IMG/VR virus record: IMGVR_UViG_3300021399_000006
Coordinates: 14,128-78,127 of that record
Length of the DNA stretch: 64,000 nt
Direction: 5' to 3' (one strand)
Origin: a virus
A program made the translations under genes and the position numbers. The notes beneath the pieces were generated by a model. The model searched no databases. It had not been told where the DNA came from and saw only the letters and a program-made list of their open reading frames with translations. Positions 8,613 through 45,860 of the stretch are shown one piece after another; position 1 is the stretch's first letter; each line of letters opens with the position of its first letter.

Positions 8613-8930
8613 TATTATATCATAATATTTTAATAAAGTCAAGTGCGGTCTCGGCGGCAAGGCCATATGCCTCGGTCTGAACCTAAGGGCCCTATGATGC
8701 GAGAAGCAGGTGAGACTGCACATAGGTCCATCTCCGCCTGACGGATTCACATAGGTGAATTCAGTTATGTGGATAGGTTCACCTTTGTGGATTGTGCAAA
8801 ATGCACAAAAATTTCGGGAATTTTGGCGAAAAATTTGTGCAATTTTTTTTGAAAAAAATATTGACATTGAGAGAATTTTGTGGTATAATCGGCGCGAACC
8901 ATGGTTCGCGCCCCGATGGTTTTAGATATG

Positions 8931-8960
8931 GATATAAAAAAACAGGCGTTACCGCCTGTT
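8931..8960 (-). terminator. Rho-independent terminator (AACAGGCG-UUAC-CGCCUGUU + U6 on minus)
   Basis: Hairpin plus A6 on plus, which is U6 on minus. Confidence 0.5.
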
Positions 8961-9099
8961 TAAATCTATTAAAGAAAAATCAAAACCCATAATGAAAGCA
9001 AGAATTGCATCTGCTATAAGAATGAGAGGCCAAAGGGGTGTAGGTTCACGAAAGTAGAAGGTAGAGACCGCACATAAAACAAAGAACCATACAACGCAT

Positions 9100-9282
9100 T
9101 TAATCATAGAAAGAAACATCTTCAATTCTCCATGCAAAAGGTTGGCGATAATAATCAAGAGTAATTGCATCACAATAGCTCCCAAAAGGACACTCATCAC
9201 ATTTGTTTATATCTTTATAGGCTTTTTTACAACCTTTTTTAATGAGTTTCATTCCTTCAATAATTTCATTTTTCCAATTCAT
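9100..9282 (-). CDS. small Cys-rich protein (CDECPFGSYC)
   Basis: Track ORF of 60 aa. RBS AGGAGAAG. Confidence 0.5.
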   Translation of the reverse strand: MNWKNEIIEGMKLIKKGCKKAYKDINKCDECPFGSYCDAITLDYYRQPFAWRIEDVSFYD

Positions 9283-9283
9283 T

Positions 9284-9472
9284 TTATTCTTCTCCTATCT
9301 CAATACGATAACAAATATCACTAATAATATTATGAAGATTAAAATTAAAAGTATCTTCAATATCTTCTAAATCAAATTCATCTTTATAACAATGAATAAG
9401 ATTTTTAAAGGCTTCACCATATCTTTCCGCCAGTTCAGGAAAAAGAGTTTTTGAAATATCTGAATTAATCAT
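9284..9472 (-). CDS. hypothetical small acidic protein
   Basis: Track ORF of 62 aa. Confidence 0.45.
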   Translation of the reverse strand: MINSDISKTLFPELAERYGEAFKNLIHCYKDEFDLEDIEDTFNFNLHNIISDICYRIEIGEE

Positions 9473-9717
9473 CTGCTTTTCTCCCTTGCAATATCGCTAA
9501 ATTTGTACCACACGCCTTCATCATTTTCATCTCCCCAAGTATGAGTTCCTTCCCAATAGTCATAAAGTTCATCATAAGGAATAAACTTTTGTGCAAACAT
9601 GATAACACCAAAAGCCTGAGCACGACAATTCTTAACCATGTCAGCAGAAGAACATTCTTTTGCATCAGCAAGTCTTTTTTCAACAAATTCTTTAACATCA
9701 TCCATTGTGATAGTCAT
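9469..9717 (-). CDS. hypothetical protein
   Basis: Track ORF of 82 aa. RBS AAGGAAA. Confidence 0.55.
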   Translation of the reverse strand: MTITMDDVKEFVEKRLADAKECSSADMVKNCRAQAFGVIMFAQKFIPYDELYDYWEGTHTWGDENDEGVWYKFSDIAREKSR

Positions 9718-9897
9718 AGCTTATTTCCTTTCTGTTGCTTTCCTCTTGACAATTATTATTATATCAGATTATCGGGAAAATACAATATGTAATGTTGCAC
9801 AAAAATGTAGATGAAATTTTGGTAAGGTTGACTATTGACATATTTTGGGCGCTGTCTCAATGGACAGCGCCCCGGGCTTCCGCCTGGGACGACTGTT

Positions 9898-10116
9898 TTA
9901 ATATTCAAGAGCTGATAACCAATTATAGTTATTAATATAAATATCTTTCCAGAATACTCTTTTTACTTTATGTTCAGAACAATTTAACGTTTTAGCAACA
10001 TTCCAGAAAACAATGTCTCCATCTAACCACCAGTCAAAATATTCTTGTTTCATAATAAAAAGAAAAAGTAATGCTTTGATTTGTTTATCTCGTTCAATCT
10101 TTTTCTGTCGAGTCAT
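9898..10116 (-). CDS. hypothetical protein
   Basis: Track ORF of 72 aa. Confidence 0.45.
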   Translation of the reverse strand: MTRQKKIERDKQIKALLFLFIMKQEYFDWWLDGDIVFWNVAKTLNCSEHKVKRVFWKDIYINNYNWLSALEY

Positions 10117-10119
10117 AAG

Positions 10120-10380
10120 TTAATCCTCAAGCAATCTTTCTGCTACACGTCTCCTCACAAATTTTATTGTATTATCAATCTCTTTTTCATTATAATAAAA
10201 GAAATCGTCAGCCTCATCGAGTCCATCAAAACAATCGCAGATAGCACTGTTGCAATCTTCTGTAATAACTCCAAGAACTTCATCAACGATTTCATTAATG
10301 TCAATATTAACATTAATAGAACTAATTACAAATGCCATTTTATACCTCCTTAAAACTCCTTGAAAACTTCCTTCTGACAA
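10120..10380 (-). CDS. hypothetical acidic protein
   Basis: Track ORF of 86 aa. Confidence 0.5.
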   Translation of the reverse strand: MSEGSFQGVLRRYKMAFVISSINVNIDINEIVDEVLGVITEDCNSAICDCFDGLDEADDFFYYNEKEIDNTIKFVRRRVAERLLED

Positions 10381-10559
10381 TCAGGACACAGACCAGAGAT
10401 AAAACGCTCGCGGTCAGTAGGCGACATGTGTGGAAAAGCATCCTGCACAAGTTCGCCAGACAGATAATTAAGATACTGTTCTAACTCAACAGTAAGAGTA
10501 TGATAAGTATTGCACATAGGACAAACAAAACCCATAGTAATAGGAACGAAAAATTTCAT
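10350..10559 (-). CDS. small Cys4 zinc-binding protein (CPMC...CPDC)
   Basis: Track ORF 10350..10604. Internal ATG ~10559 has an RBS GGGGG. Confidence 0.45.
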   Translation of the reverse strand: MKFFVPITMGFVCPMCNTYHTLTVELEQYLNYLSGELVQDAFPHMSPTDRERFISGLCPDCQKEVFKEF

Positions 10560-10572
10560 ATTTACCCCCTTT

Positions 10573-10752
10573 TTAGAAAAACATAAAATAGCAGATACAA
10601 ACAATGCCTACTTTAATTGCAAGAGACTGAAAAATTTTAGCAAATGCTTCATACCAGTCAAAAGCAGAATCAAGAATAAAAAATGCTTTACTGATAAAAG
10701 ACACTCCCATAGCAACCGAAAAAATAATAAACATAACCATTCGCATATCCAT
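10573..10752 (-). CDS. small membrane protein (59 aa)
   Basis: Manual ORF, two hydrophobic helices. Confidence 0.35.
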   Translation of the reverse strand: MDMRMVMFIIFSVAMGVSFISKAFFILDSAFDWYEAFAKIFQSLAIKVGIVCICYFMFF

Positions 10753-11096
10753 TTTGTTTTCTCCTTTCTTGTTGATAATATAAGTATATCAGATTACAGG
10801 AAAAATACAATAGATAGATTGCACAAAAAATCAAATGAAAATTTGTTAATTATGTCTATTGACTTGAATTTTGGCGCGCGTGGTTTGTACGCGCGCCAGC
10901 CGTAGATTAAATCTGGTACAGGCTGACGCATTTTTTTACCTATTATTCCAAATCAAAGTACATGCTACGAAAACCATACAAAAAATTACAAGTGTTCCAA
11001 TATGAGGTTGTGAGCCAGGAAGAGTATAATACATTTTTTTATTTCCTTTCTTTTGATAATATCATTTTATCAAATTTTTTATTTTTTGTCAATACT

Positions 11097-11390
11097 TTAT
11101 TCTGAAGTATCGACTCCGCAAAGCCTCATAGTCATAGCGATACAAGTAAAAGCGAAAACTCCCATATCATCAGGAATAGCGTTATAAACATTAGGATAGA
11201 GTCTTTTAATACCAGTAAGAAACATTCCACCCCAATTTCCGCCACATGCAGAACAATGGTCAAGAAAAGCCTTTGTGTTTCCATTAAAAGGATTGACAGT
11301 GAAAGCGGCTTCAATAACTTTTTTGCCATCTTCTCCCCAATTTTCAACAAGATAGTTCTGTGCTTCAATAATCATATCGTATGTAATCAT
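11097..11390 (-). CDS. hypothetical protein
   Basis: Track ORF of 97 aa. Confidence 0.5.
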   Translation of the reverse strand: MITYDMIIEAQNYLVENWGEDGKKVIEAAFTVNPFNGNTKAFLDHCSACGGNWGGMFLTGIKRLYPNVYNAIPDDMGVFAFTCIAMTMRLCGVDTSE

Positions 11391-11737
11391 GCTTTATTCT
11401 CCTGTTCGTTAATAGCATCTGACAAATGATAACAAGATTCATAGGGATTAGTTTCAATAGCTTTTATCATAGAATCCATATCCCACTCAATTGAAATAAT
11501 ATTTTGAAGAGGATACATAATTCCTGCATCGTCTTTTATGTAACCATTCTTTTTAATAAAAAGCATAAGATATTCAGGAATAGAACAAGTAATACTATCG
11601 GGATTTATATGAGAAAAATAAGAATATTTATGCTTTTCATTATCAATAGTAGTAAAAGATACAGTATAATGAATAGCTGTTACAATATTTTTTTCTCCAT
11701 AAATCTTTTTGTATAACCATTTATTAATATTAAACAT
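11387..11737 (-). CDS. hypothetical protein
   Basis: Track ORF of 116 aa. Confidence 0.5.
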   Translation of the reverse strand: MFNINKWLYKKIYGEKNIVTAIHYTVSFTTIDNEKHKYSYFSHINPDSITCSIPEYLMLFIKKNGYIKDDAGIMYPLQNIISIEWDMDSMIKAIETNPYESCYHLSDAINEQENKA

Positions 11738-11919
11738 TTTTTATCTCCTTTCCTCTTGACAATTATTATTATATCAGATTATAGGAATAAAACAATAGGC
11801 AAAATATACAAAAAATGGATGAAAAATTTGTTAAAAGTGATGTATTGACAAAAAAATGGCGCGCGTGGGTTGTACGCGCGCCAAAAAGGCTACCACCTTT
11901 TACAGTGGTAGCCTGTGGG

Positions 11920-12321
11920 TTACTCTGCTTCACCGTCCGTAGGTTCAGCATCAGGGGCAACGAACTCGACCCCCTTGACAGCGTACAGAGTGCGCTTCTT
12001 ATAGACGTGTCTCTGTGCCTTGTCAGCCTTAATCAGCTGACCCAGGAGAGCACCCATCTTCTGCGGAGACAGGTCTGCCAGACGCTCATCTGCCATAATG
12101 TCAGCCATAGGGATGAACTCCTCTGCTTCCGTAAGAATCTCAAGGATGATACCCTTAAGGGTCTCATTCTGCTTCTGTGTCTTAGTCATACCGCTCTTAG
12201 AGCCACGCTTGTTCAGCTGTGCAATCAGAGCGTTCAGGCGTTCGATTGCTTCGGGATTAGTCTCGCCCAGAGCCTTGATACCATGGTTGATAGCTTCTAC
12301 GTAAGTCATAGTCTTAGTCAT
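11920..12321 (-). CDS. Family-A paralog 1 (133 aa, GC-rich), unknown function
   Basis: Track ORF. Paralogous to 15319..15723 and 17488..17853 (M..MTY.EAI.....A.G..N/H.EA.ERL.AL.AQL.KR...G.TKTQK). Confidence 0.6.
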   Translation of the reverse strand: MTKTMTYVEAINHGIKALGETNPEAIERLNALIAQLNKRGSKSGMTKTQKQNETLKGIILEILTEAEEFIPMADIMADERLADLSPQKMGALLGQLIKADKAQRHVYKKRTLYAVKGVEFVAPDAEPTDGEAE

Positions 12322-12878
12322 GTTTTTCTCCTTTACTGATGAATTGTTTTCTTTATCTTATGTATTTATTATATCAAAGTTTTTTTTGTTTGTCAATAGT
12401 TTTTTTTGTTTTTTTCGGGGAATAAGAAGCGGTGACGTCAATCCGCTTCCGTTTACCCCTGCCCATATTTATGTCATTGCGGATGGGCTTCCGCTTAGCT
12501 ACAAAATCGCATACACTTAATATCCTTTCCTGACCTGTTTCCTAAAGATATTGTAGCATAAATGTTGTTCCGTGTCAAGCCTTTTTTAGTAATTTTTTAA
12601 GGTTTCTCTTTGCGGTCGTTCCATGGCACTAACGGCAAAGGTACTTTTTGGGGCTGTGCTGACCGTCTTGACTGTCGGCCCTCTCCCTCTCTCATTTTGT
12701 AATTAAATTATATCAGAAATTTTTTAATTTTGCAAGTACGAATATCGGGAAATTTTTTATCGTAAATTTGTTTAAAAAAATGCTTGACAAAATGGCTCGG
12801 AGTATGGTATAATGGAATTTTGGCGCGCATCGATCGATGCGCGCCCGACCAGTTTTTTATACCAATCGGGCGTATTTT

Positions 12879-13067
12879 TTATCGTTTTATCATATTTAAA
12901 AGCTGATTAAATAAAGCGATATAGTCATCGTTATCTATAAATCTAATGGCTGTTTCTCCAAAAAATTTTTCAATAGTTTCGTCAATAGCGTCGGAAACAT
13001 CTTCCGCAAGAGTTTCCATATTAAAGTCAATTGAAAAAGTACATTTTTCTGCATCATAATTAAACAT
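12879..13067 (-). CDS. small acidic protein
   Basis: Track ORF of 62 aa. Three-gene acidic operon. Confidence 0.45.
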   Translation of the reverse strand: MFNYDAEKCTFSIDFNMETLAEDVSDAIDETIEKFFGETAIRFIDNDDYIALFNQLLNMIKR

Positions 13068-13070
13068 TTT

Positions 13071-13268
13071 TTATTCTCCTTTTTTAATTTTAGCTTCTTC
13101 AAGAACAGTATTAAGGAAAAAAGGGTAATCTTTATCAGAAATGCAGATTTCAGAATTTCCTATCCATCTATCAACAGCATCAATTACTTCATCTACAACC
13201 TGTTGAATATCAAAAACTTCAACAGTAGTAACTTTCATAAGACCATTATCTTTACAAAATTCAATCAT
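13071..13268 (-). CDS. small acidic protein
   Basis: Track ORF of 65 aa. Confidence 0.45.
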   Translation of the reverse strand: MIEFCKDNGLMKVTTVEVFDIQQVVDEVIDAVDRWIGNSEICISDKDYPFFLNTVLEEAKIKKGE

Positions 13269-13494
13269 TTTTTCTTTCTCCTTCTTCTGCTAAAGTTAAT
13301 ACATAATCGGCAACATCTATAATAAGATTATTATGATTTTCAATTATAGTAGAATGGTCTGCAATATCTAATTCATTAATACCCAATTCTTGATAAATCT
13401 CTTCTTCAATAAGATTAAGAATACGTTCTGCAATTACTTGAATGTCAATAGCAGATTTTTTAACAACAGTAACAGGAACAACTCTTGATTTCAT
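13261..13494 (-). CDS. small acidic protein
   Basis: Track ORF of 77 aa. Confidence 0.45.
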   Translation of the reverse strand: MKSRVVPVTVVKKSAIDIQVIAERILNLIEEEIYQELGINELDIADHSTIIENHNNLIIDVADYVLTLAEEGERKND

Positions 13495-13743
13495 TATCTA
13501 TCTCCTTTCTTTTGATAAGTCTATTATATCAGATTCCAAAAGAAAGTCAATACTTTTTAGGAAAAATATTTTTTATTTTTTCTTGCGGAAATTGCTTGAC
13601 AAAAAGCCTTACCTGTGATATACTTAAAAATTCGGCGCGCGCTGGAGTGGGACACGCAAGCGCGCGCCGTTCATAAATCTGAATTTCAAATTTATGTATA
13701 AAAAAATCCAGAAAGCTGAAATTCAGTTTTCTGGATAGTGGTT

Positions 13744-14133
13744 TTACTTTTTCGGGGGACGATGCTTGACAAGTTTCACAGTGTATGAATTACCGTTAAA
13801 AGTGAAACTAAATTCCGCTTCATTCTTTACACTGGACACGACACCGCCGAACACTTCAACCGCTGTTTTAATGGCAGTCAGCAGACCGCCTTTTTCAGCA
13901 TCGACCTTGCGTTCTCTTACGACCTTTTTGCGTTCCTTATCCGACTTTTCGTAGCGTCTACCGACCTCTTTAGCTTTTTTGGTCATGGCTTCCGCTTCCT
14001 CATTGTCTGTGTAATCATGGTCATCCAGCCAAACATCAATAGCTTCCTCTTTCGGAATGTCAAGGCTTGCCATAAGTTTTTTAATATCTCCATCGGGAAT
14101 ATTGATTTCTTTGCCATTGAAATTATATTTCAT
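13744..14133 (-). CDS. hypothetical Lys/Glu-rich protein
   Basis: Track ORF of 129 aa. Confidence 0.5.
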   Translation of the reverse strand: MKYNFNGKEINIPDGDIKKLMASLDIPKEEAIDVWLDDHDYTDNEEAEAMTKKAKEVGRRYEKSDKERKKVVRERKVDAEKGGLLTAIKTAVEVFGGVVSSVKNEAEFSFTFNGNSYTVKLVKHRPPKK

Positions 14134-14188
14134 AACGTACCCCTTTCTTTATTTTCTAAAAAAATTTTATCATAAAATTTTTTATTTG

Positions 14189-14884
14189 TCAAGTAGTAAA
14201 AAGCCGATATTCCATTTTTTTGTGCTGTCTAAAACAATGTGCCATGATTTTAGTCTCAATCAAAACATCCTCAAGCCCTGTGTGGGCTTCATCAAATGTG
14301 TTATTGCCTGAAATGTATCTGTAAAGAATTTCAGCAGTAAGACGAACACGAGGATTTTTGTGTTTTGTCATGTATTCATTTTTAATACACCATCTTTCAT
14401 AACTTTTCTGTTTTCCGATTGTCTGTCTTGCCATTTTCAAAGTATCCCAAATTTCCATTTTATAAGGGAAAAAGAAACGCTTTTTTGATTTATAGACCCA
14501 TCGGATAGTATTAGTCAGTGCTTTCCAATCAAAATGTGCGTTATGTGCGAAAATTGCCTTTACGCCAAATTCTTTTAAATCTTTCCAAAAGACATTATAC
14601 ATAGTCTGGAATCTAACAAGTTTCCGCTGTCCGCTTTTAACCTGTTCCCAATACATGGGAATTTTTTCAGCGTAATAGGCGGACGCCATAACGTCTTTCA
14701 TAGCTACAAAAACTTCATAAATCAGAAATGAACGAGTTTTATAAATCCGTCCCTGTTTGTCAGTGATAACCCAACCAATATCGTATACAAGAGACTGTGA
14801 TAAATCCAGTTTATCACCATCAAGCATAATGCCGTTACAAGTTTCAGTATCAAGCCCCATAAGGTATTTAATTCTTTTATCCAT
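14189..14884 (-). CDS. DEDDh 3'-5' exonuclease (DnaQ/RNase T-like)
   Basis: Track ORF 14189..14956. Start ATG 14884 (MDKRIKY) has RBS AAAGGAGA. Exo motifs GLDTETC, FAHNAHFDW, HTGLEDV. Confidence 0.7.
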   Translation of the reverse strand: MDKRIKYLMGLDTETCNGIMLDGDKLDLSQSLVYDIGWVITDKQGRIYKTRSFLIYEVFVAMKDVMASAYYAEKIPMYWEQVKSGQRKLVRFQTMYNVFWKDLKEFGVKAIFAHNAHFDWKALTNTIRWVYKSKKRFFFPYKMEIWDTLKMARQTIGKQKSYERWCIKNEYMTKHKNPRVRLTAEILYRYISGNNTFDEAHTGLEDVLIETKIMAHCFRQHKKMEYRLFTT

Positions 14885-15159
14885 TCTATCTCCTTTTGTG
14901 TGCTGTTCTTTGTTCCTTACAAGTATTATTATAAGGGATAGCAAGCGGAAAAGCAAGCAAAATTTTTAAAAAATTTGCACAAATTTCGGGATTTTATTTA
15001 ATTAAAATTTGTGCAGATTTTCACTTGACAAAAAGGTTGGCGGTATGGTATAATGGATTTTCCCCGCGGCCCGGAGGACCGCGGGGCGAGCAAAAAAAAT
15101 AGGGCCTGGAATATTCCAGGCCCACACACAGAAAGGAGGACAAATAAAAGTCAGTCAAG

Positions 15160-15232
15160 TGTGCCCGAAGGGACTTGAACCCTCGACCCTTTGATTAAAA
15201 GTCAAATGCTCTACCAACTGAGCTACGGGCAC
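15160..15232 (-). tRNA. tRNA-Lys (anticodon UUU), 73 nt, CCA not encoded
   Basis: Cloverleaf read by hand: acceptor GUGCCCG/CGGGCAC, D-arm GCUC-AGUUGGUA-GAGC, anticodon arm UUUGA-CUUUUAA-UCAAA, T-arm GAGGG-UUCAAGU-CCCUU. Confidence 0.75.
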
Positions 15233-15318
15233 ATAGACCCCACGTGGTACGCTATTAAGCGTGTGGGGTGCTGATATATGGCGGTTTTGATAAGGGAGAC
15301 CGCAAACTCCCCGATAGG

Positions 15319-15723
15319 TTAGGCGTCCTCGTCCTCTGCTACCTCGGCATCAGGAGCAACAAACTCCGTGCCTGCGATAGCGTACAGGGTGCGCTTTTTA
15401 TAGACCTTACGGACAACCTTTTCAGCCTTTACAAGCTGACCGAGCAGAGCACCCATTTTCTGGGTGGACATACCCTCGGGCAGGCGGTCATCTGCAAGCA
15501 GGTCTGCCATAGGGACGAAGTCCTCTACCTCTGCCAGAATATCAAGGATAACTGCCTTGATTTCCTCGTTGGCTTTCTGGGTCTTAGTCATACCACCCTT
15601 AGAGCTACGCTTTGCAAGCTGTGCAGTGAGAGCGTTCAGTCTCTCAACCGCTTCGGGATTGGTATCACCGAGAGCCTTGATTGCGAAATCGATTGCAGTT
15701 GCATAAGTCATAACGTTTGCCAT
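15319..15723 (-). CDS. Family-A paralog 2 (134 aa, GC-rich)
   Basis: Track ORF. Confidence 0.6.
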   Translation of the reverse strand: MANVMTYATAIDFAIKALGDTNPEAVERLNALTAQLAKRSSKGGMTKTQKANEEIKAVILDILAEVEDFVPMADLLADDRLPEGMSTQKMGALLGQLVKAEKVVRKVYKKRTLYAIAGTEFVAPDAEVAEDEDA

Positions 15724-16097
15724 AATGTTTTTCTCCTTTTTGATGAATGATTTTGTTTTCTTTATTTTATGTATTTATTATACTATAAGTTTTTTTATTT
15801 GTCAAGAACTTTTTTTATTTTTTATTTCTTGACTTTACAAGGAACACATGTTAGCAAGCCTTTGCATTTTTGCGTATTGGGATTGAGTCGGCTTTTGTTT
15901 TCCTCTTTCCCTTACCTTGTAAATATATTTTATCAAAAATTTTTAAAAAACGCAATATCGGAATATTGCACAAATTTCGGGATCTGTATTGATGTAAGTT
16001 TGTGCAGATTTTCACTTGACAAAATCTCAAGGATATGATATAATGGAATTTTCGCCGCGGCCCTGTGGACCGCGGCCCGCACAAAAAAAGGAGAGCC

Positions 16098-16277
16098 TTA
16101 CAGCTCTCCCCAGTTAGCGGAATTTTTAACAATACGTCTATCCTGTCTCCGTGCGGAGCGTTTAAACTGTTTACACAGTTTACGATATTCCGCACGAGTA
16201 TAAAGAAGTCCAACTTCTTTAACACCCAGCCCCCAGATAGACCAATTTTTAGCAGTACCCTTTTTAAAATAATCCAT
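16098..16277 (-). CDS. small basic protein (59 aa)
   Basis: Manual ORF with RBS GGAGAAAAAT. Confidence 0.4.
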   Translation of the reverse strand: MDYFKKGTAKNWSIWGLGVKEVGLLYTRAEYRKLCKQFKRSARRQDRRIVKNSANWGEL

Positions 16278-16288
16278 ATTTTTCTCCT

Positions 16289-16738
16289 TTAAGCAATCAG
16301 ACCAGACAGAAACGGGATAATATTCTGATTTGCGTCAATAGCGTCTCCGAGTGTCCAATCTTTTCTCACACGGTCATCATCATCAATCAAAATCTGAAAA
16401 CCACCGAGGTTTTTTGTACAGGTCTCTTTAACAGTTCCATATTCTACGATATGAAGTTCGTCATAAGGGAAATCATATTTCCGAAGCCAGTCAACTTTTG
16501 CCTGTTTGACTTTCGCATCATAGTTAGGAGTAGAATCTTTAGCAAGCCACGATGTAACGACAATTCGCCAACCGTCATTTTTAAGCACCCACAGGATAGC
16601 GGTCAGAAGCACCATATCATAAAGGGGTTTAGCTTTAATGTACGGTGTAGGGTCTTCCGCCCTAAGCATTTTCAGCCATCCTTTTACATTATAAGTATCA
16701 GCAAGAGTACCATCCATATCAAATACAAGAGTTTTCAT
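16289..16738 (-). CDS. HAD-superfamily hydrolase (5'(3')-deoxyribonucleotidase-like; FDMDGTL motif I)
   Basis: Track ORF of 149 aa. Confidence 0.6.
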   Translation of the reverse strand: MKTLVFDMDGTLADTYNVKGWLKMLRAEDPTPYIKAKPLYDMVLLTAILWVLKNDGWRIVVTSWLAKDSTPNYDAKVKQAKVDWLRKYDFPYDELHIVEYGTVKETCTKNLGGFQILIDDDDRVRKDWTLGDAIDANQNIIPFLSGLIA

Positions 16739-17060
16739 TTTTTGTTCTCCTTTCCTTTTGTTGATTATATATTATCATACATTGGAGAGATTGTCAAGGA
16801 TATTTTTTAAAGTAATCCACATAATTTTGCAATTATAGGGCTTATTACATAAAAAATTAAAAATAAGAAAAAAATCCAATTAAAATTAATTTCATCTTTT
16901 TTCGGTTTATGATAGACACTATAAACACCGATAATAAATATACTAATAAGATAAAATATAAAAATAATTTTTCCTGTCATTTTTTATTTTTCCTTTTCCT
17001 TTTGTTGATTATATATTATCACACATTGGAGAGATTGTCAATACTTTTTAAAAAATTTTT

Positions 17061-17243
17061 TTAAATTTCAAAAGTATCATTGCCGAACATTTCAACCATC
17101 TCATAAAATTCTTCTACAGAAGAACAATCAAAGGAAGCACCATTGATTTCTGCTACCTTTTCGCCGTAGGCTTCAAAGAAAATAGCGTTTTCAGTTTCAG
17201 CAAGAACAGTAAAAAATCTTTTAATATATTCTCTATGTGTCAT
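17061..17243 (-). CDS. small acidic protein
   Basis: Track ORF of 60 aa. Confidence 0.5.
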   Translation of the reverse strand: MTHREYIKRFFTVLAETENAIFFEAYGEKVAEINGASFDCSSVEEFYEMVEMFGNDTFEI

Positions 17244-17487
17244 GTTATTTCCTTTCTATTGCTTTCCTCTTGACAATTATTATTATAAGCGATAGCCTTA
17301 AAAAACACAATAGGTAAATTATACAAATTTCGGGATCAAATTTTGTTTATTTTTATTGTAGATTTCACTTGACAAAAAGCTGGCAGATGTGATATAATTG
17401 AATTTTGGCCCGCGCCGGAGCACTACGCGCAGGCGCGGGCCAAGCACAAAAAAGCGACTTTTAAGGGGAAGTCGCCACCCCATAAAA

Positions 17488-17853
17488 TTATTCCTCTGCT
17501 ACCAGAGAGTAGACAACGTGCTTGTCAGCCTTGCCCTTTTCAACGATGCCATCCTTGACCATCTGACCAAGGAGTGCGCCCATCTTCTGGACAGACAGAC
17601 CATCAGGCAGGCGAGGGTCAGCAATCAGCTTCACCATGCCGACAGGCTCTTCGGCTTCGCCGAGGATTTCAGCAATCATTTTCTTGATTGCTACGTTTGC
17701 TTTCTGAGTCTTAGTCAGACCCTTAGAGCCAGAGTTGCGCTTCGCAAGCTGTGCCTGGAGTGCCTTGAGGCGGTCAACGGCTTCGGTATGGTCTGCGCCC
17801 ATAGCCTCGATAGCGATATTGATAGCTTCTGCATAAGTCATAACATTTGCCAT
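17488..17853 (-). CDS. Family-A paralog 3 (121 aa, GC-rich)
   Basis: Track ORF. RBS AAAGGAG. Confidence 0.6.
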   Translation of the reverse strand: MANVMTYAEAINIAIEAMGADHTEAVDRLKALQAQLAKRNSGSKGLTKTQKANVAIKKMIAEILGEAEEPVGMVKLIADPRLPDGLSVQKMGALLGQMVKDGIVEKGKADKHVVYSLVAEE

Positions 17854-18212
17854 AATTTTTCTCCTTTACTGATGAAAATCTTTTGTTTTCTTTTGATGAT
17901 GTTATTATATCAGGTTTTTTGTTTCTTGTCAAGGCTTTTTTTGAAAGTTTTTTAATTTTTTTCAAGTGATTGACCAGAGCCTTACCCCGTAGCCGTAACC
18001 ACCTGACTGCCTTTCCCTTACCTTGTAAATATATTATACTAAAAATTTTTTAGTTTTTCAAGATGGAATATTGCACAAATTTTGGGATCGTGAGAGATGA
18101 AAGTTTGTACAAAATGCCGATTGACTTTTTTCTGGCGGTGTGGTATAATGGAAATTTCGCCACGCGCTGGAAAGGGACGCACCAGCGCGTGGCGAGCAAA
18201 AAAACAGAGGGT

Positions 18213-18395
18213 TTACACCCTCTGCCCACCCTGACGGATGAAACAGCCAGAGCACTCATAAGAGCCATCTCCGACAGCCTTGACCCCAGTCAGGTCAAGG
18301 ATATAGAGGCCTGTAGCCTCGATTGCCTTGCGGATGACTGCGACCTTGTTAGAGGAAGCGTTAACAGTGACGATGTAAGATGCGAAATTCATCAT
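18213..18395 (-). CDS. small protein (60 aa) preceded by a ~220-nt GC-rich structured leader (18396-18620)
   Basis: Track ORF. RBS AAAAGGAG. Upstream consensus minus promoter at ~18620-18650. Confidence 0.5.
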   Translation of the reverse strand: MMNFASYIVTVNASSNKVAVIRKAIEATGLYILDLTGVKAVGDGSYECSGCFIRQGGQRV

Positions 18396-19106
18396 AGTGA
18401 TATTCTCCTTTTCTGATGGTGATTATTAATTGAAATGCGTCCATCCTACCAGCCTAGGGGTTCCAGACGCTCCCCGTATGTTGCCTGCACATTTATATAC
18501 CGCAAAGTAGGACTTCGGCTTGCGGTGGTGGGTCTTTGTTAGGAAGACTTACTGCGACAACTTGGCGTCTTGGGTTCTTTCCCTTGCTTCCATCCCTCAC
18601 CTTATGTATTTATTATAGCACCTTTAGGTGGCTATGTCAATACCTTTTTTAAAAAATTTTTCAATCTTTGTGGTCCTGACCCGTGAGGTAGATTGAAAAC
18701 CCAGAGCGGTTTGTGTCGTGTCCTCGTCGCCATAGCACGGCTTTTTGTTTATTGAGGAGTTTGCTCTCCTCATTTGATGATTATATTCTATCATCTTTTT
18801 TATTATTTGTCAAGAGGAAATTTAAATTTTTTTAAATTCTTGCTTCGCTACCGTGTATCCACAAGCAGAAGACCCGAGGTCGGGAACATCTCCTGTCCTC
18901 TTGACAATTATTATTATAAGCGAAAACGGGCGGAAATGCAATAGGTAATATTATACAAATTTCGGGATCAAAAAAGATTGTTATTTGTATAATTTTCCTC
19001 TTGACAAAAAGCTGACGGGTGTGATATAATGATTTTTCCGCGCGCCCCGATGGTGCGCGCGGCAAGCAAAAAAAATAAGGGGATAGTAAACCCTATCCCC
19101 TTATTC

Positions 19107-19310
19107 TTAGCAATCATAGGTGTAGCATCCCTCGTAAGGGTCGAATCCGCATTCATCTACATCGGGTTCATCGTCCCAGTCATACTCCTCATCCTCGTAC
19201 TCTTCCTCATACTCAGATTCATCAACAGAACAGTAGGTTGCACAAGTGCATCCATATTCTGCCTCGTAGGGGCAATTTCCAAAGTCACAAGGGGTTTCCG
19301 CTCTCAGCAT
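19107..19310 (-). CDS. highly acidic Cys-containing small protein (67 aa; candidate DNA mimic/anti-defence)
   Basis: Track ORF. More than 35% D/E. Followed by a strong terminator. Confidence 0.5.
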   Translation of the reverse strand: MLRAETPCDFGNCPYEAEYGCTCATYCSVDESEYEEEYEDEEYDWDDEPDVDECGFDPYEGCYTYDC

Positions 19311-19337
19311 ATCTTTATCTCCTTTCCTATTGTTGGA

Positions 19338-19526
19338 TTAAATTGCTTTAGGACGTTTCCGAGGATGTACACGACCTGTTTTAATAGCTTCCGCCATGAA
19401 CTTTTCCTTGGCTTCGACTTCATCAGGGGGAGCGATTGTAACCAAAGTTACAAATCTTTCAGGTGCATACAGATTTTCAATATCCTTGTAAGTAAAAAGA
19501 CCGCCACCATAAACAACTTTTCTCAT
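19338..19526 (-). CDS. hypothetical protein
   Basis: Track ORF of 62 aa. Confidence 0.45.
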   Translation of the reverse strand: MRKVVYGGGLFTYKDIENLYAPERFVTLVTIAPPDEVEAKEKFMAEAIKTGRVHPRKRPKAI

Positions 19527-19592
19527 AGTATTTTCTCCTTTTGTGTAATGTTTTCTCTTGATGATTATATTATATCATAGTTTAGGAAAAAG

Positions 19593-19775
19593 TCAATACA
19601 TAATGTAAAGTTTTTTTCCATCTTTTGATTTCCACATTTCCAGACCCTTGCTGTTAAAGCCGAGGAAAATAACAGGGACGTTTAAAACATAAATAGGCTC
19701 AACCTTAATGTCAGGATTAAGACCAAATTTTTCGATGACAGTTCTCAATTCTTTATCAGACATAAGTTTTCTCAT
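19593..19775 (-). CDS. small protein (60 aa) with tandem structured leader (19780-19960)
   Basis: Part of track ORF 19593..19907. ATG at ~19775. Confidence 0.4.
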   Translation of the reverse strand: MRKLMSDKELRTVIEKFGLNPDIKVEPIYVLNVPVIFLGFNSKGLEMWKSKDGKKLYIMY

Positions 19776-20150
19776 TTTTATCACCTCGTTTTGTATTATT
19801 TTGTCGTATAGGGGATACCGCTGGTTCGTGTAGGCGGCAGATACCAAATCCCCTATAATAGAGAGCCACAGGTCTGTATGTGGATACCGCATCTCTATGG
19901 GGAGCACCGCTGGTTCGTATAGGCGGCAGATACCTGAACCTCATCTTGGTTCGCTCCCCCTTGACAATTATTATTATAAGCGATAGACCAAAAAAATGCA
20001 ATAGATAAAATGCACAAATTTCAGGATGGATCTTTGTGCATTTTTTTTGAAAAAATGCTTGACAAAAAGGTGGCAGGTATGGTATAATGGAACTTCGGCC
20101 CGCGGCGATGAGAAGCAAACCGCCGCGGGCCGGCCAAAAGATGAGGAGTT

Positions 20151-20342
20151 TTACTCCTCATCCTCATCATCCCATCCGTCATCTCTAAGAGCAAGTTCTT
20201 TCAGGCCGGCAAGCTGTTCATCAGTCATCTGGGGATTGAGTTCAACCTCAATGCAGAACCAGATTGTAATCTTATCTTCAAAACCAAGGGTTCTCATAAC
20301 TTCATCCATTGCTTCGTTATTTCTTTTGGTGTAATTTGTCAT
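20151..20342 (-). CDS. small acidic protein (63 aa; C-terminal DDGWDDEDEE)
   Basis: Track ORF. Confidence 0.5.
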   Translation of the reverse strand: MTNYTKRNNEAMDEVMRTLGFEDKITIWFCIEVELNPQMTDEQLAGLKELALRDDGWDDEDEE

Positions 20343-20823
20343 TTTTTTATCCCCTTTCTTTTGATGATTATATTATATCAAAATTTTTCTTTTTTGTCAA
20401 CCGTCAGAAATCAATTTTTTTATATTTCTGACGGTTGTAATCCTTTTTGGATTTGTGTGTGCGGATTCCTGTATTGAAGGGGACAAGCACACGTTTCTGT
20501 GCGTTTTTTGCTTTCCGCACTTTTTTATTTTCGTTTGTCATTTTATCACCCCCTTTTTTTTCTTTTTTAACTATAAATTCTACAAAATAATCCTTCTTGA
20601 TTAAACTCAAAACTAATGTTTTCTCCAGACATAGGATTTTCATATTCTAAATTATATTCATCCTCGTAAACAAGTTGCTGTCCTGTAATTTCCATCATAT
20701 TTTTAATTTGTTCTTTTGTCATATTTTTTATTTTCCTTCCATTCGATTGATTATTTGTTTTCCTTTAACTGTATTTATTATATCAAAGGGTTTGGCTTTT
20801 GTCAAGCCCTTTTTTCATTTTTT

Positions 20824-21123
20824 TTAAATTTTATTATATCCTGCTCTCATGTGCTCAATAGCAAGATTGATAATGTCCTGCGGAGCTTCGTTTTCTGCGT
20901 AGTACCGTCTAATCTGATTCGGTCTTGCGATAAGAATGGTAATCATAATACCTGTCCGCTTGTTGTAGATTACTACCAATCCGGTTGTAGTAATCTTATG
21001 GACTTCGGGTCCATTCTTATGACCACGGTCTACAGTGACTTCCTTTACAACCTGCCCCATTCCGATCTGGGCGATAATCTGGCTACGTCTCTGGCGGTCG
21101 GCTCTCCAATGCTTGCTGTTCAT
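20824..21123 (-). CDS. hypothetical basic protein
   Basis: Track ORF of 99 aa. Confidence 0.5.
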   Translation of the reverse strand: MNSKHWRADRQRRSQIIAQIGMGQVVKEVTVDRGHKNGPEVHKITTTGLVVIYNKRTGIMITILIARPNQIRRYYAENEAPQDIINLAIEHMRAGYNKI

Positions 21124-21333
21124 GTCGTATCTCCTTTCCTTTATCTTATGTATACATTATACCCCATGAGAGCGGCCATGTCAAGTAAAATATTGCACAA
21201 AATTTCAGGAATTTTGTGCCTGATCTTTGTGCACTTTTCCGATATTGATTTTTTCTAGCGGTTGTGGTATAATGATTCCCGGCCCGGCCTGGCAAGGGAC
21301 GGCCAGCCGCGCGCCGCGCAAAAAGGACGAGGA

Positions 21334-21438
21334 TTAATCCTCGTCCTCGCCATTGAACTCTTCAAGAGTTACACCACACTCTGCAAGCAGTTCCTCAAGA
21401 GTTGCACCATAGTTCATCATTTCGTTAAGAGTAGTCAT
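21334..21438 (-). CDS. tiny acidic peptide (34 aa)
   Basis: Manual ORF with its own TTGACA-17-TATAAT promoter and RBS. Confidence 0.3.
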   Translation of the reverse strand: MTTLNEMMNYGATLEELLAECGVTLEEFNGEDED

Positions 21439-21539
21439 TTTGTACCACCTTTCTTTTGTATGTTTGTTTTCCTTTAACTATATTTATTATATCTTAAAGG
21501 GGTTGTTTTGTCAACCCCTTTTTTTATTTTATTTTTTGA

Positions 21540-21700
21540 GGAGATTTCCACTCCTCTCTCTTGGATGGCTTTGATTGTAGCGTAAGCACTTTGGGGAACT
21601 TAATCTCCAGTTACCTCACCCCGAAACTCGGACCATCAGAGTTTAAAACCGAGCGCTTGGTAGCTAAGGAATCGAACCTTAGTAGAACCGTTCTACCTTT
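21540..21700 (-). ncRNA. ORF-free cassette slot, candidate small RNA carrying a tRNA-like T-arm (GGUUCGAUUCC)
   Basis: Bounded by standard cassette promoter/terminator motifs. No ORF of 30 aa or more even with TAG read as sense. Confidence 0.3.
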
Positions 21701-21757
21701 CCTTTGATGATTATATATTATCATATTTGTTGACTTTTGTCAACCCCTTTTTTTATT

Positions 21758-21919
21758 TTATTTTTCAAGCCATTTGTAAAAGTTCTTTTTCCAGTTCTCA
21801 ATGATTTTTACAGTGTAAAAATCATCTTTACAAATTTCTTCAACCCTTGCATCGTCCATGTGATAACCGTTCTGAATCATTTCGTTGAAGATTGCTTTCT
21901 TGATTTCGTAGTTTGTCAT
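21758..21919 (-). CDS. small protein (53 aa)
   Basis: Manual ORF, own promoter. Confidence 0.35.
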   Translation of the reverse strand: MTNYEIKKAIFNEMIQNGYHMDDARVEEICKDDFYTVKIIENWKKNFYKWLEK

Positions 21920-22012
21920 TTTGTACCACCTTTCTTTGATCGGTTTGTTTCATTTCTTGATTATATTATATCAAAGGGGTTGAGGTTTGTCAACCCCTTT
22001 TTTAAAATTTTT

Positions 22013-22168
22013 TTAATCCCAAAAACCAGACCAAACAGAAAACCCTTGTTCATTTACTATTACGTGATCGAAATAGCCATTATCATATTTTTCCATATAA
22101 TCCAGGCAGTCGGCATAAGACCCCTCAAAAACAATTAATTCATCTTCGTTGCGTTCAACTCGATACAT
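22013..22168 (-). CDS. small acidic protein (51 aa)
   Basis: Manual ORF. Confidence 0.35.
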   Translation of the reverse strand: MYRVERNEDELIVFEGSYADCLDYMEKYDNGYFDHVIVNEQGFSVWSGFWD

Positions 22169-22266
22169 TTTAAATCTCCTTTTCATTTGATTGGGTTTTG
22201 TTTTCCTTTAACTGTATTTATTATATCAAAGGACTTGGCTTTTGTCAAGCCCTTTTTTAAAATTTT

Positions 22267-22446
22267 TTAGCACTCCCACGGTCCATCAGGGAAAAATGTT
22301 ACACAATTAAGGTCGTCATCCCATCCGCAAGAAAGAACATAGTTCTGCCACTGTCCAGACATAGCATCAATTTCTTTTTCCATTTTATCCATCATGTCTG
22401 CATCAATAGTAACGACTGCATCTAAAAACCATACATAACCTTTCAT
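22267..22446 (-). CDS. small acidic protein (59 aa)
   Basis: Manual ORF. Confidence 0.35.
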   Translation of the reverse strand: MKGYVWFLDAVVTIDADMMDKMEKEIDAMSGQWQNYVLSCGWDDDLNCVTFFPDGPWEC

Positions 22447-23022
22447 TTTATACCACCTTTCTTTTGTGCTTTTGTTTTCCTTTGATGATTATATTATATC
22501 AAAGGGCTTGGCTTTTGTCAAGCCCTTTTTTGATTTTTTTAAAATCTTTCTTTTAAAGCAAAACCCTTTTCATTACGAATAGCAATGTAGTCATAAGGAA
22601 ATTTTTTACAGGCTTTTTCAAAAACTTTTTCCGCTTCTTTCATAGTTGCTACTTTAAAACCGTAACGGAGAAAACCTACTGTGATGTGGAACATTTTGTA
22701 CCCCTTTCTTTGGATCGATTATTGTTTTCCTTTGATGATATAAGTATATCACACTATAGAAAAAAGTCAATAGATTTTTAAATAAAATATTGTACAAAAA
22801 AAGGATTAAAATAAAATAAATAATTATGCACTTTTCCCTCTTGACAACTGGCTGTCACATGTGATATAATGTTTCGGCCTGCAGCGGCCGCTTCCGCAGG
22901 CTTTGGAAAGAATGTTAAATTATTAACAATCGATCTTCTTTTGTACGATCGATTGTTAATAATACGCTTTGTTATAATATAATAAAAGCCTTATTAGTTT
23001 TATACTAATAAGGCTTTTATTT

Positions 23023-23265
23023 TTATTTAACGTCAACACCTTGACTTTTCAAATATGCAATTCTTGAAGGAACATATTCGTTATATCTTTTTTCAAGCTG
23101 TTCTTTTGAGTATCTCATAACATAGCTTCTATCAGCTTCTTTGTAGATACCAAGTTCAACCATTCTGTTAACCATAGCTTTCTTTGTCATTTTAAACCCC
23201 TTTCTCGATCGGTTCTTTGCTTCATTTGATAAATCAATTATAACGCTAAAAGACATATCTGTCAA
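23023..23265 (-). CDS. hypothetical basic protein
   Basis: Track ORF of 80 aa. Confidence 0.45.
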   Translation of the reverse strand: MTDMSFSVIIDLSNEAKNRSRKGFKMTKKAMVNRMVELGIYKEADRSYVMRYSKEQLEKRYNEYVPSRIAYLKSQGVDVK

Positions 23266-23614
23266 TACTTTTTTTAATTTTCAGACTATTTTTTTAATTT
23301 TCAGATAACTTTAAAATCTTCGTTTTTAAAGGGTTTACTTTGATCTTTTAACGTGTTAAAGTGTGTTATTTTTTTAACAAACAATAGCATTTTAGGAATG
23401 AAAAAATTTTTTAAAATTTTTTCATTTTTCCTCTTGACAAACTGGTTCTATGTGTGGTATAATTGTTCGGCCTGCAACGGCCGCTGGTGCTGACTAACAC
23501 AATAGAGTTTGTTTGTTAATTAACAAACAAACTCTATTACTTTAACGTATTAAAGAACATTGTTAAAACCTTAACAATCAATCTACTATGTTAGATTGAT
23601 AATAGTTTAACAAT

Positions 23615-23690
<76 letters not shown>

Positions 23691-24413
23691 TTGACTTAGT
23701 TTGATTATTTATCTTATTTTGATTAGTTTGACCTAACTCAGCAAAGCCACTTTTACACATTAGCGTACTAAAGTGTTATTTTTTTAACAAGTAAAAGACT
23801 AAATCTTTAAATTTTAAAATAAGTGTTAAAAATTTAACAAGCCCGCTAATGAGCAAAAGTAAGAGTTTAGTGTGTTAAAAACTTAACAAAGGCAAGACTG
23901 TATCACTTTACCATGTTAAAGTGTTAACGTGTTACTAATGAGCAAAAGTAAGAGTTTAGTATGTTAAAAATTTAACGCTTATCAGGAAAGGTGTGAGTTT
24001 AGTGTGTTAAAAATTTAACGCTTATCAGGAAAGGTCTGACTTTTATTGATTACAGATTTATGGATTCAGAAATCTGGATACGTGTTATTGCATTAAAATT
24101 CGGCGCGCATTGGCCTGCGCGCGCCGAGCAAAACTATTAAATACAAAAAAAGACCGCCCTAAATAAAATCATACGATTTTTTAGGGCGGTCCATTCTACG
24201 CAGCGTTTATATTTAGTTTTTTGTCTCTACACAGCATTCCCAAAACTTTTCTCTCGGTATTAACGGGGGGGGTGGGTTTTTGGGAAAAAATTTTTTTGAT
24301 TTTTAAAATTGATTATGGTCTCGCCATTCCCCGTACCAAAAGTTTTTAAGTTTTCAAACAACGTACCAAAAGTTTTTAAAAATCTAAATAACGGTTCCTC
24401 GCACCAAAAATTT

Positions 24414-28834: not shown

Positions 28835-28960
28835 TTGTCTTTCATTTTCTAAAAATATTATATCAAAAAAAATTCAAAAAAACAAGTCAATTTGCTATTT
28901 AAGCTACTTTGACTTGTACAAAAAATTTTGATATACTAAAAATATAAGGTCAAGAAAGGA
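28835..28960. promoter_or_regulatory. Divergent promoter pair at the early/late boundary: a leftward one (TTGACT-18-TGATATAAT) and a rightward one (TTGACT-17-TATACT) for the late operon
   Basis: Hexamers read on both strands. Confidence 0.55.
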
Positions 28961-43906: not shown

Positions 43907-43920
43907 TGATTAATTAATTA

Positions 43921-43958
43921 TGGGAAAGGATATTTTATATCCTTTCCCATTTTTTTTA
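43921..43958 (+). terminator. Rho-independent terminator after the major tail gene
   Basis: GGGAAAGGAUAU-UUUA-UAUCCUUUCCC + U8. Confidence 0.7.
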
Positions 43959-43984
43959 TATAATATAATAGGAGTTTTAATTTC

Positions 43985-45154: not shown

Positions 45155-45223
45155 CATTTTTAAAATTTTTTGTTATACTTTAAAAAGTAAATAATTTTAA
45201 TTTTAAAAGAAGGAGATAAAAGG

Positions 45224-45772: not shown

Positions 45773-45860
45773 ATAATTTAATTTTAATCGCTCTCTTTGT
45801 ATATTATTACAAAGAGAGCGATTTTTTTATTTTATTTGAAAACAAAGGAGGAGATAATTA

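Follow-up and report, generated by a model that had tools for sequence, protein, structure and literature searches.

We analysed a 64,000-nucleotide stretch of DNA from an uncultured gut phage (IMG/VR record IMGVR_UViG_3300021399_000006, positions 14,128 to 78,127), hereafter called the window, in which a cassette of ~190 bp is repeated in about 14 copies between small minus-strand early genes. Each complete cassette holds a promoter that opposes these genes, named P_A here, with a hairpin just downstream of it. The window is phage-like, with a guanine-cytosine (GC) content of ~30%. On its plus strand, the genes at 29-62 kb and 5.9-8.4 kb have open frames solely when TAG is read as a sense codon, as illustrated by open reading frames (ORFs) of 2981 codons (45858-54803, of tape-measure size) and 1558 codons. 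Its portal protein shares 37% identity with that of phAss-1, a TAG-recoded siphovirus of 136 kb from a human gut virome assembly, with Clostridia as predicted host (PMC10607447). The window phage is a TAG-recoded phage of Firmicutes. tRNA-Lys(ttt) (15159-15232) is the sole transfer RNA (tRNA) detected in the window, which showed no suppressor tRNA. Between 8.6 and 28.8 kb lies the array of small genes, all on the minus strand, in the standard code and each with a good Shine-Dalgarno site.

Architecture of the cassette

In gene direction, the cassette begins behind the stop codon of an upstream gene (gene X), often with a one-way terminator, and continues with the hairpin, the reversed P_A, TGCACAAA, a spacer of ~14 nt, ATCCCGAAATTTGTGCA, a gap of 9-10 nt, a second promoter (P_gene), a conserved leader and the downstream gene (gene Y).

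An earlier note on this DNA had described a split palindrome upstream of plus-strand promoters, and this palindrome is real. The window holds five exact matches to TGCACAAA-N5-35-TTTGTGCA, all on the plus strand (8802-8841, 14976-15015, 15967-16006, 20011-20040 and 21194-21233), with 14 or 24 nt between the arms; 100 shuffles gave none. The palindrome at 18072-18111 has one mismatch in its right arm (TTTGTACA), and a variant at 18952-18991 reads TATACAAA...TTTGTATA. The coordinates reported earlier were good to a few bases, save 19996-20035, which should read 20011-20040. As for the copies that had been called degenerate, those at 9796 and 10820 have the left arm alone and that at 11795 a weaker left arm; all three retain the -35 hexamer and the GC-rich hairpin, and their spacer and -10 are gone. 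In the copy at 17320, the left arm is a variant, the extension is intact and a complete promoter is present.

The left (distal) arm together with its extension reads TGCACAAATTTCGGGAT on the plus strand, a 17-mer that becomes ATCCCGAAATTTGTGCA when read on the minus strand. In most copies this motif starts at a constant 32 nt from the -35 of P_A, and, in minus-strand reading, 9-10 nt separate its end from the downstream -35 of P_gene. The right (proximal) arm lies upstream of the P_A -35 by 9 nt (50 copies) or 19 nt (11 copies). Both arms are placed upstream of the -35 and overlap no core promoter element. The extension ATCCCGAAA is present on one arm only, so that the site is asymmetric. Further, the GTGCA core and the 17-mer are conserved beyond mere A/T-richness, and the flanks of the arms are A/T-rich. 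The same arm motif also stands upstream of other gene promoters, at 9-10 or 19 nt.

Perfect TTGACA-N17/18-TATAAT promoters occur 21 times in the window against 0.07 expected, all within 8861-23463, which bears out the earlier claim of 12/12 matches with a mostly extended -10. Nine of them are on the plus strand (8861, 12784, 15025, 16016, 17369, 19001, 20059, 22841 and 23434); additional plus-strand promoters match at 11/12 positions (13596 and 18121) or 10/12 (21245), and almost all plus-strand promoters carry the TG of an extended -10. As had been proposed, they are antisense to the genes of the array, and they make up a coherent class under strong selection. The distance from the P_A -35 to the start codon of the divergent gene Y is mostly 115-125 nt. 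P_gene, a second and divergent minus-strand promoter (TTGCAT, TTGTGT or TTGCGT, N17, TATAAT), adjoins the left arm and drives the gene of the next cassette. The plus-strand promoters and half-sites of the unit pictured in the earlier note are present, whereas the hairpin and the divergent P_gene had no place in that picture. P_A is predicted to be the stronger of the two promoters of the cassette and is directed back into the preceding gene; judged from its sequence, it would combine all features of a maximal sigma-A promoter.

Distribution of the cassette and the hairpin downstream of P_A

A scan of IMG/VR with the 17-mer returned 60 loci, about 38 of which hold the whole cassette. Contigs with the cassette measure 20-198 kb, have a GC content of 30-48% and stem from many samples of gut and rumen. 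Purpose-written pattern scripts detected, across the window and 35 loci, 148 elements that pair a promoter with a hairpin. When the -10 and discriminator (TGGTATAATGGAAATTTCG) served as an independent anchor, a further 21 copies came to light; the hairpin was found in 21/21 of these, the proximal arm in 19/21, and the distal motif mostly as variants. Arms and 17-mer recur in the cassette-bearing contigs, and the half-sites are conserved in related phages.

Two classes of element were distinguished. In class A, which includes the plus-strand promoters of the window, the gap between -10 and hairpin is 7-9 nt, and 79/108 copies are antisense to both flanking genes. In class B the gap is 2-4 nt, and the promoters are mostly co-directional with the genes and typically partner a class A promoter, the two converging on the same hairpin. 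With about 14 copies in the window, dozens of related phage contigs and this bias towards antisense orientation, the proposal of a repeated regulatory grammar holds.

The sole published, named phage genome that matches the cassette is phAss-1 (OQ749652), itself a metagenome assembly. Its segment at 129.1-135.0 kb (positions 43100-49000 of our locus L074) contains face-to-face pairs of consensus promoters around GC hairpins, for example 130714/130804 and 132917/133008; the words 'promoter', 'repeat', 'hairpin' and 'terminator' are all absent from the paper that describes this phage (PMC10607447). No cassette was found in the cultured Enterocloster phage PMBT24 (OQ326496). Megablast of window positions 14000-22000 against a phage collection gave a single 46-bp hit, and blastn of one cassette gave no match. 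Among genomes of GTDB, the cassette was found on contigs of metagenome-assembled genomes (MAGs) only (labelled Bacillota, Oscillospiraceae, Lachnospiraceae, Erysipelotrichaceae and others). A host or prophage origin was rejected, since the genome scan matched MAG contigs only.

The hairpin downstream of P_A is GC-rich, has a stem of 8-14 bp and differs in sequence in each copy. In the window it begins 7-9 nt past the -10 of the plus-strand promoters, with folding energies of -15 to -31 kcal/mol at a local GC content of ~33-41%, and no comparable hairpin follows the minus-strand gene promoters of the window. Across loci, the gap from -10 to hairpin is 7-8 nt in 85/102 copies, a fixed spacing for which a role at the RNA's 5' end is the best explanation. 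About 95 distinct stem and loop sequences were found, yet the stems always pair. Between near-orthologous copies, changed positions amount to 4/136 in stems, 12/76 in loops and 60/672 in flanks, and one stem change is a compensatory pair; this comparison rests on 8 informative pairs with one compensatory change, too few for covariation statistics. We also folded the first 48 transcribed nt of 499 near-consensus promoters from the cassette loci, and the median was -16.9 kcal/mol for antisense-oriented promoters versus -1.7 for co-directional ones.

On the transcript of P_A, the extended -10 is followed by GGAAATTT ahead of the hairpin and the hairpin by CCAAAA, with a U-tract on neither strand. 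Many stems are CGCG-rich and near-perfect palindromes, and many are not alternating purine-pyrimidine. Rfam at the gathering threshold returned tRNA-Lys alone, and the weak hits at a permissive threshold in 8.7-24.3 kb are noise; a known RNA family as the source of the hairpin or cassette was ruled out by these scans.

The hairpin might instead serve the RNA made in gene direction, as a back-up terminator lacking a U-tract, an insulator or a 3' stabiliser of gene X, with P_A acting chiefly as a roadblock of bound polymerase against read-through into gene Y. Such a role would fit the hairpins at 9847, 10872, 11857 and 24100, which persist where the -10 is missing, and two P_A-less hairpins read as canonical minus-strand terminators. 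It would also fit the surroundings of gene X: a gene-direction terminator between hairpin and gene X was found in 42/83 copies, so that half of the copies have no separate one, and at some loci the hairpin is merely 12-20 nt from the stop codon. Against this role, the position of the hairpin is fixed relative to the P_A -10 and variable relative to the stop codon of the convergent gene X (median ~40 nt, range 12 to >100 nt). Further, what follows the hairpin in gene direction is AAATTTCC, not a U-tract, and of the hairpins, solely those at 11857 and 24100 scored as intrinsic terminators. We consider this explanation unlikely.

In P_A direction, a terminator within 100 nt was found in just 15/81 copies, so polymerases from P_A should enter gene X. 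A discrete small RNA with its own terminator was ruled out on the same count. We also rejected P_A as an mRNA promoter for a protein antisense to family A, the commonest protein family beside the cassettes (see below): no start codon with a Shine-Dalgarno site was present, and the translations were Leu/Cys/Phe-rich and incoherent.

Some antisense RNAs of the window would nevertheless be bounded, since the plus-strand terminators that the earlier note had placed in 20.7-22.6 kb do exist. They lie at 20785-20812, 21496-21521, 21729-21744, 22234-22251 and 22501-22528, with a further one at 22981-23021, and that at 21496-21521 would end the RNA from the P_A at 21245. The plus-strand terminators of 20.8-23.0 kb are embedded in minus-strand promoters. 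As a separate observation, the first five, together with a hairpin at 21975-22000, are bidirectional terminator hairpins that hold the TTGACA -35 of the next minus-strand promoter in their loop.

Taken together, we propose the following model, to which we give an even chance of being right. P_A would be a promoter of maximal strength, probably constitutive, read by host RNA polymerase with sigma-A. Its transcript would begin 6-8 nt past the -10, leaving 1-3 unpaired nt ahead of the hairpin, which would form a 5'-terminal stem-loop; in Firmicutes, a 5'-terminal stem-loop shields RNA from decay that depends on the 5' end. The polymerase would then pass through the one-way terminator into gene X, where head-on collisions and the stable antisense RNA would reduce the output of gene X and keep its read-through out of the P_gene region, so that the upstream cassette is damped or insulated. 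The arms would act per promoter, either as an UP-like contact for the alpha subunit of RNA polymerase or by binding a factor that is monomeric or occupies each arm independently. The conserved cassettes would, as a side effect, supply homology for the exchange of the ORFs between them.

Several points weigh against this model. The hairpins at 9847, 10872, 11857 and 24100 persist without a complete P_A, so that the hairpin may have a second use on RNA made in gene direction, backing up termination or stabilising the 3' end. For most copies, no 3' end of the antisense RNA is defined. In the face-to-face pairs, the second, co-directional promoter starts within the same hairpin, and the model does not account for this class B partner. 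The exact conservation of GTGCA and ATCCCGAAA across diverged phages exceeds that of a usual UP element, and the conserved GTGCA core with its one-sided ATCCC extension likewise suggests a specific binding protein. Finally, a strong constitutive antisense promoter behind each early gene would look wasteful unless it were timed by a binding factor.

Candidate regulators, rival roles and known systems

The earlier note had proposed a dimeric regulator that binds both half-sites. In this scheme both arms together would be the operator of a dimeric regulator of the phage, such as the family-A winged-helix protein, which would switch P_A and the divergent P_gene as a temporal sense/antisense switch in each cassette. 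The arms are indeed inverted with centres 32 or 22 bp apart, which would place them on the same face of the helix, and the conservation of GTGCA and the 17-mer exceeds A/T-richness. The scheme was not borne out by the geometry of the arms. Their spacing is not constant, each arm tracks its own -35, no arm overlaps a -35 or -10, and ATCCCGAAA is confined to one arm. The two arm-to-arm distances (14 vs 24 nt) reflect a shift of one arm, by a turn of the helix, against its own promoter, in a cassette of constant length. Lone promoters carry single arms: among class B promoters the proximal arm stands at 9-10 nt in 23/37 and an inverted partner is present in only 9/37. The arms also vary independently, identical pairs numbering 26 against 23.6 expected; symmetric co-evolution was not seen by this count, though the copy at 18952-18991 carries matching TA variants. 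We therefore read the palindrome as two copies of what is, on the sequence, a promoter-anchored 8-bp upstream element of back-to-back promoters. A dedicated dimeric operator is not supported and seems improbable to us, and a putative regulator that binds single arms may exist.

Family A bears on this question as the commonest protein family beside the cassettes (25 genes at 16 loci), with genes directly downstream of three window cassettes. In its predicted structure (predicted local distance difference test score, pLDDT, 80), a helical hairpin at the N-terminus precedes a winged helix at the C-terminus. The best structural matches in Foldseek were small winged-helix domains, with Z-alpha and DsrD among the top ones, and the sequence matches were weak. 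Against a regulatory role, family A matched no Pfam or PHROG family. On this model, family A is a candidate only for a regulator that binds the arms.

Family A as a Z-alpha-type Z-DNA binder of the CGCG stems was rejected: the winged helix is generic, hhalign gave a probability of 1.4%, and Asn173 and Tyr177 align to non-conserved Ser and Gly, in an alignment that left the wing Trp uncovered. Separately, the family-A genes (in the window 11920-12321, 15319-15723 and 17488-17853 on the minus strand, plus 22 homologues) have a GC content of 0.51-0.52, far above their surroundings. They avoid TTA, CTA and TCA codons, so that the codon-aligned antisense frame is fully open in 16/25, and we judge this open frame to be a shadow ORF of that avoidance. 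In addition, P_gene transcripts start with a leader conserved across loci (tatttACAAGGTAAGGGAAAGAGG), seen on the minus strand of the window at 15826-15935, 17955-18045 and 12400-12735 and also at locus L018. In front of each family-A gene, 100-300 nt without coding sequence and a second consensus promoter come after the leader; a portion of this non-coding sequence (…AAAGCCnACTCAATCCCAATACGC…) is common to the window and L018.

A timing device that acts across the genome in a large, uncultured clade of Clostridia phages is also conceivable, if rather unlikely. A conserved early protein, possibly the family-A winged helix, would read ATCCCGAAATTTGTGCA and TTTGTGCA and flip each cassette from P_gene to P_A, and the antisense RNAs and collisions would shut the early array at once, the hairpin capping the antisense 5' end and blocking the sense 3' end.

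We also considered a group of roles that concern the DNA itself or processive transcription: cruciform or Z-DNA formation by promoter firing, polymerase sequestration, transcription-driven genome entry, replication priming or activation, and put/nut-like antitermination towards the late genes. The CGCG-rich, near-palindromic stems would speak for this group. All P_A promoters of the window are directed towards the late operon, as in another locus (L007), and two P_A-like promoters are aimed at an iteron-like region (23.3-24.1 kb). Against such roles, many stems are not alternating purine-pyrimidine and family A has no Z-alpha signature residues; the hairpins vary within one genome, unlike nut sites, and 15/81 copies have an immediate terminator in P_A direction. 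As to the late genes, the lead gene of the late block (28972-30084, plus strand) matches a phage sigma-factor family (phrog_5767), with zinc-ribbon/HNH-like matches at its C-terminus, and has its own sigma-A-type promoter at 28909-28937 on the plus strand (TTGACT-N17-TGaTATACT); the feeding of P_A transcripts into the late operon was rejected on account of this promoter. The chance that any of these roles is the main one is very slim.

Homology between loci brings in another explanation, in which the cassettes are mainly recombination modules for ORF exchange between co-infecting phages and the antisense promoter is incidental. By blastn, the homology of window positions 8.5-24.5 kb to other loci consists of a conserved-gene block (10.9-12.9 and 13.7-18.3 kb) and short islands on the intergenic cassettes, and the ORFs between the islands have no nucleotide homologues in related loci. 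The cassettes are direct repeats ~1 kb apart, and both this pattern of homology and such a role have been described (PMC4122927) for the promoter-early stem-loop (PeSL) cassettes of T4-type phages (Arbiol 2010, PMC2839356; Comeau 2014, PMC4122927). Homology alone would leave the 12/12 promoter with its extended -10, the fixed position of the hairpin, its kept pairing and the antisense orientation unexplained, and we hold this explanation, as the main one, to be quite improbable.

Our cassette shares several features with PeSLs: both are short composites of a near-consensus sigma-70 promoter and a stem-loop, repeated between small accessory early genes and kept where the flanked ORFs vary. The PeSL stem-loop sits immediately upstream of a promoter that runs with the genes, and it terminates the upstream gene (PMC4122927). 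In our cassette, by contrast, the hairpin lies downstream of a promoter that opposes the genes, the antisense promoter of the window has a back-to-back partner and a conserved upstream motif, and the phage is a siphovirus of a Firmicute rather than a T4-like myovirus. Elsewhere in the window, the compact terminator/promoter composites at 20.8-22.5 kb are true PeSL-like units, nucleotide-conserved in related phages.

Another likeness is to an engineered part in Escherichia coli, which joins a unidirectional terminator and a reverse constitutive promoter. Its repression scales with the strength of the antisense promoter, acts mostly via polymerase collisions and depends on a terminator of low strength in the antisense direction (Brophy & Voigt 2016, PMC4731013). 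The layout at the gene's 3' end is the same, whereas the synthetic part has no 5' hairpin, divergent partner promoter or upstream motif. By analogy, the cassette may be a natural counterpart of this part.

Natural systems share single features with the cassette. Like P_A, the constitutive promoters of lambda OOP RNA and of RatA and SR4, type I antitoxin RNAs of Bacillus, converge with the 3' end of a gene and yield RNA whose sequence complements the 3' end of the mRNA of that gene. RNAs of the OOP type are single and short, with a defined terminator, and their duplex is cleaved by RNase III; our cassette differs from them in having ~14 copies per genome, mostly without their own terminator, and in targeting unrelated genes rather than toxins. 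In lambda OR and in the p4 sites between the A2c and A3 promoters of phi29, inverted sites lie between back-to-back promoters, once per genome and with fixed geometry, and they overlap a core promoter or recruit polymerase from defined positions. Our cassette likewise has inverted sites between divergent promoters, but each of its arms keeps to its own promoter, and arms also occur singly.

The sequence AAAAATTTGTGCAAATTT around the arms resembles the consensus of UP elements known from strong promoters of bacteria and phages, AAAWWTWTTTTnnnAAA, at about -40 to -60. The arms have A/T-rich flanks and a fixed, helically phased position upstream of the -35 of otherwise optimal promoters, which may fit an UP element, and differ from one by the conserved GTGCA core and, on the P_gene side, the ATCCC extension. 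The repetitive extragenic palindromes and bacterial interspersed mosaic elements (REP/BIME) of enterobacteria are GC palindromes 3' of genes that can stabilise adjacent RNA; they have one consensus and are spread by REP-associated tyrosine transposases (RAYT). Our hairpins, in contrast, have ~95 different sequences, each tied to a promoter. No transposase is among the largest protein families of the cassette loci, in which no search aimed at RAYT was made.

We found no earlier description of the cassette, whose architecture differs from that of known phage regulatory cassettes. It provides a sharply defined, conserved non-coding marker for a widespread uncultured clade of large phages of human-gut and rumen Firmicutes, the early regions of which are otherwise 'hypothetical'. 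If the proposed mechanism holds, these phages have evolved, and carry in some 14 copies per genome, the device of a one-way terminator and reverse promoter built by synthetic biologists, plus an RNA-stabilising hairpin at the 5' end. Cassettes between variable ORFs would extend PeSL shuffling from T4-like phages of Gram-negatives to siphoviruses of Gram-positives. They might also supply parts for Clostridia that are hard to engineer: sigma-A promoters of maximal strength, elements that stabilise the 5' end and compact units that unite a bidirectional terminator with a promoter.

Individual cassettes and neighbouring features of the window

Thirteen copies, numbered e1 to e13 along the window, are described here, followed by the P_A-like units. 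Hairpins and P_A promoters are on the plus strand and P_gene promoters on the minus strand.

The cassettes e7 and e8 show the full set of elements. In e7, P_gene (14928-14956, TTGCTT-N17-TATAAT) serves an exonuclease-like gene at 14189-14884; its upstream element is the distal motif at 14976-14992 (TGCACAAATTTCGGGAT), and the proximal element at 15008-15015 (TTTGTGCA) lies 9 nt upstream of the -35 of P_A (15025-15054, TTGACA-N18-TGgTATAAT). The hairpin at 15062-15086 (CCCCGCGG...CCGCGGGG, -20.5 kcal/mol) starts 7 nt past the -10 and is the predicted 5' end of the P_A transcript. A one-way intrinsic terminator on the minus strand (15102-15123) stands between P_A and the upstream unit, which consists of the family-A gene at 15319-15723 and tRNA-Lys. 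In e8, P_gene (15927-15955, TTGCGT-N17-TAAAAT) is followed by the distal element at 15967-15983 (TGCACAAATTTCGGGAT), the proximal element at 15999-16006 (TTTGTGCA), P_A at 16016-16044 (TTGACA-N17-TGaTATAAT) and the hairpin at 16054-16076 (GCCGCGG...CCGCGGC, -17.4 kcal/mol). The terminator of the gene at 16098-16277 (16088-16111, minus strand) is convergent with this P_A.

To the left of these, e1 has arms at 8802-8809 and 8834-8841, P_A at 8861-8889 and, after a short gap of 1 nt, a hairpin at 8891-8912. The next three copies are degenerate, all on the plus strand: e2 has a left arm (9796-9803), a -35 only (9835-9840), no -10, and a hairpin at 9847-9872; e3 has a left arm (10820-10827), a -35 only (10859-10864) and a hairpin at 10872-10898; and e4 (11844-11883) has a -35 only and a hairpin at 11857-11883. 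The e4 hairpin is followed by a T-run on the minus strand and so serves as the terminator of the family-A gene at 11920-12321. P_A and hairpin lie at 12784-12813 and 12822-12845 in e5, and at 13596-13624 (with TATACT as the -10) and 13634-13668 in e6.

To the right, e9 comprises P_gene (17310-17282), the distal motif (17320-17336), P_A (17369-17398) and a hairpin of -31.2 kcal/mol (17407-17441). The corresponding features of e10 are P_gene 18061-18033, distal 18072-18088, proximal 18104-18111, P_A 18121-18149 and hairpin 18159-18193, and those of e11 are P_gene 18941-18913, distal 18952-18968 (TATACAAA...), proximal 18984-18991 (TTTGTATA), P_A 19001-19030 and hairpin 19038-19062. In e12, P_gene is at 20001-19973, the distal motif at 20011-20027, the proximal arm at 20033-20040 (19 nt from the -35), P_A at 20059-20088 and the hairpin at 20097-20131. 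In e13, P_gene (21184-21156) and arms at 21194-21201 and 21226-21233 are joined by a weaker P_A (21245-21273, TTGATT) and an imperfect GC hairpin at ~21280-21316. A 33-codon ORF on the minus strand (21338-21439), preceded by a good Shine-Dalgarno site and served by a promoter of its own (21514), lies wholly inside the predicted antisense RNA of this P_A.

Beyond the cassettes, a P_A-like unit on the plus strand combines a promoter (22841-22870), a hairpin (22877-22901) and the terminator at 22981-23021, which is bidirectional; with a long internal hairpin, it is a candidate source of an RNA of ~150 nt. Another P_A-like promoter (23434-23463, plus strand), with a weaker hairpin (to 23486), is directed into the iteron-like region. 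A GC-rich hairpin without a promoter (24100-24127) comes directly after a minus-strand terminator.

The iteron-like region itself (23300-24100) is non-coding and holds the repeats gtgttaaaaatttaac and agtttagtgtgttaaaaatttaacgcttatcaggaaagg, the latter in two copies, and an (ATT)n microsatellite at ~23610-23685. It is a candidate replication origin, towards which the P_A-like promoters at 22841 and 23434 are directed.

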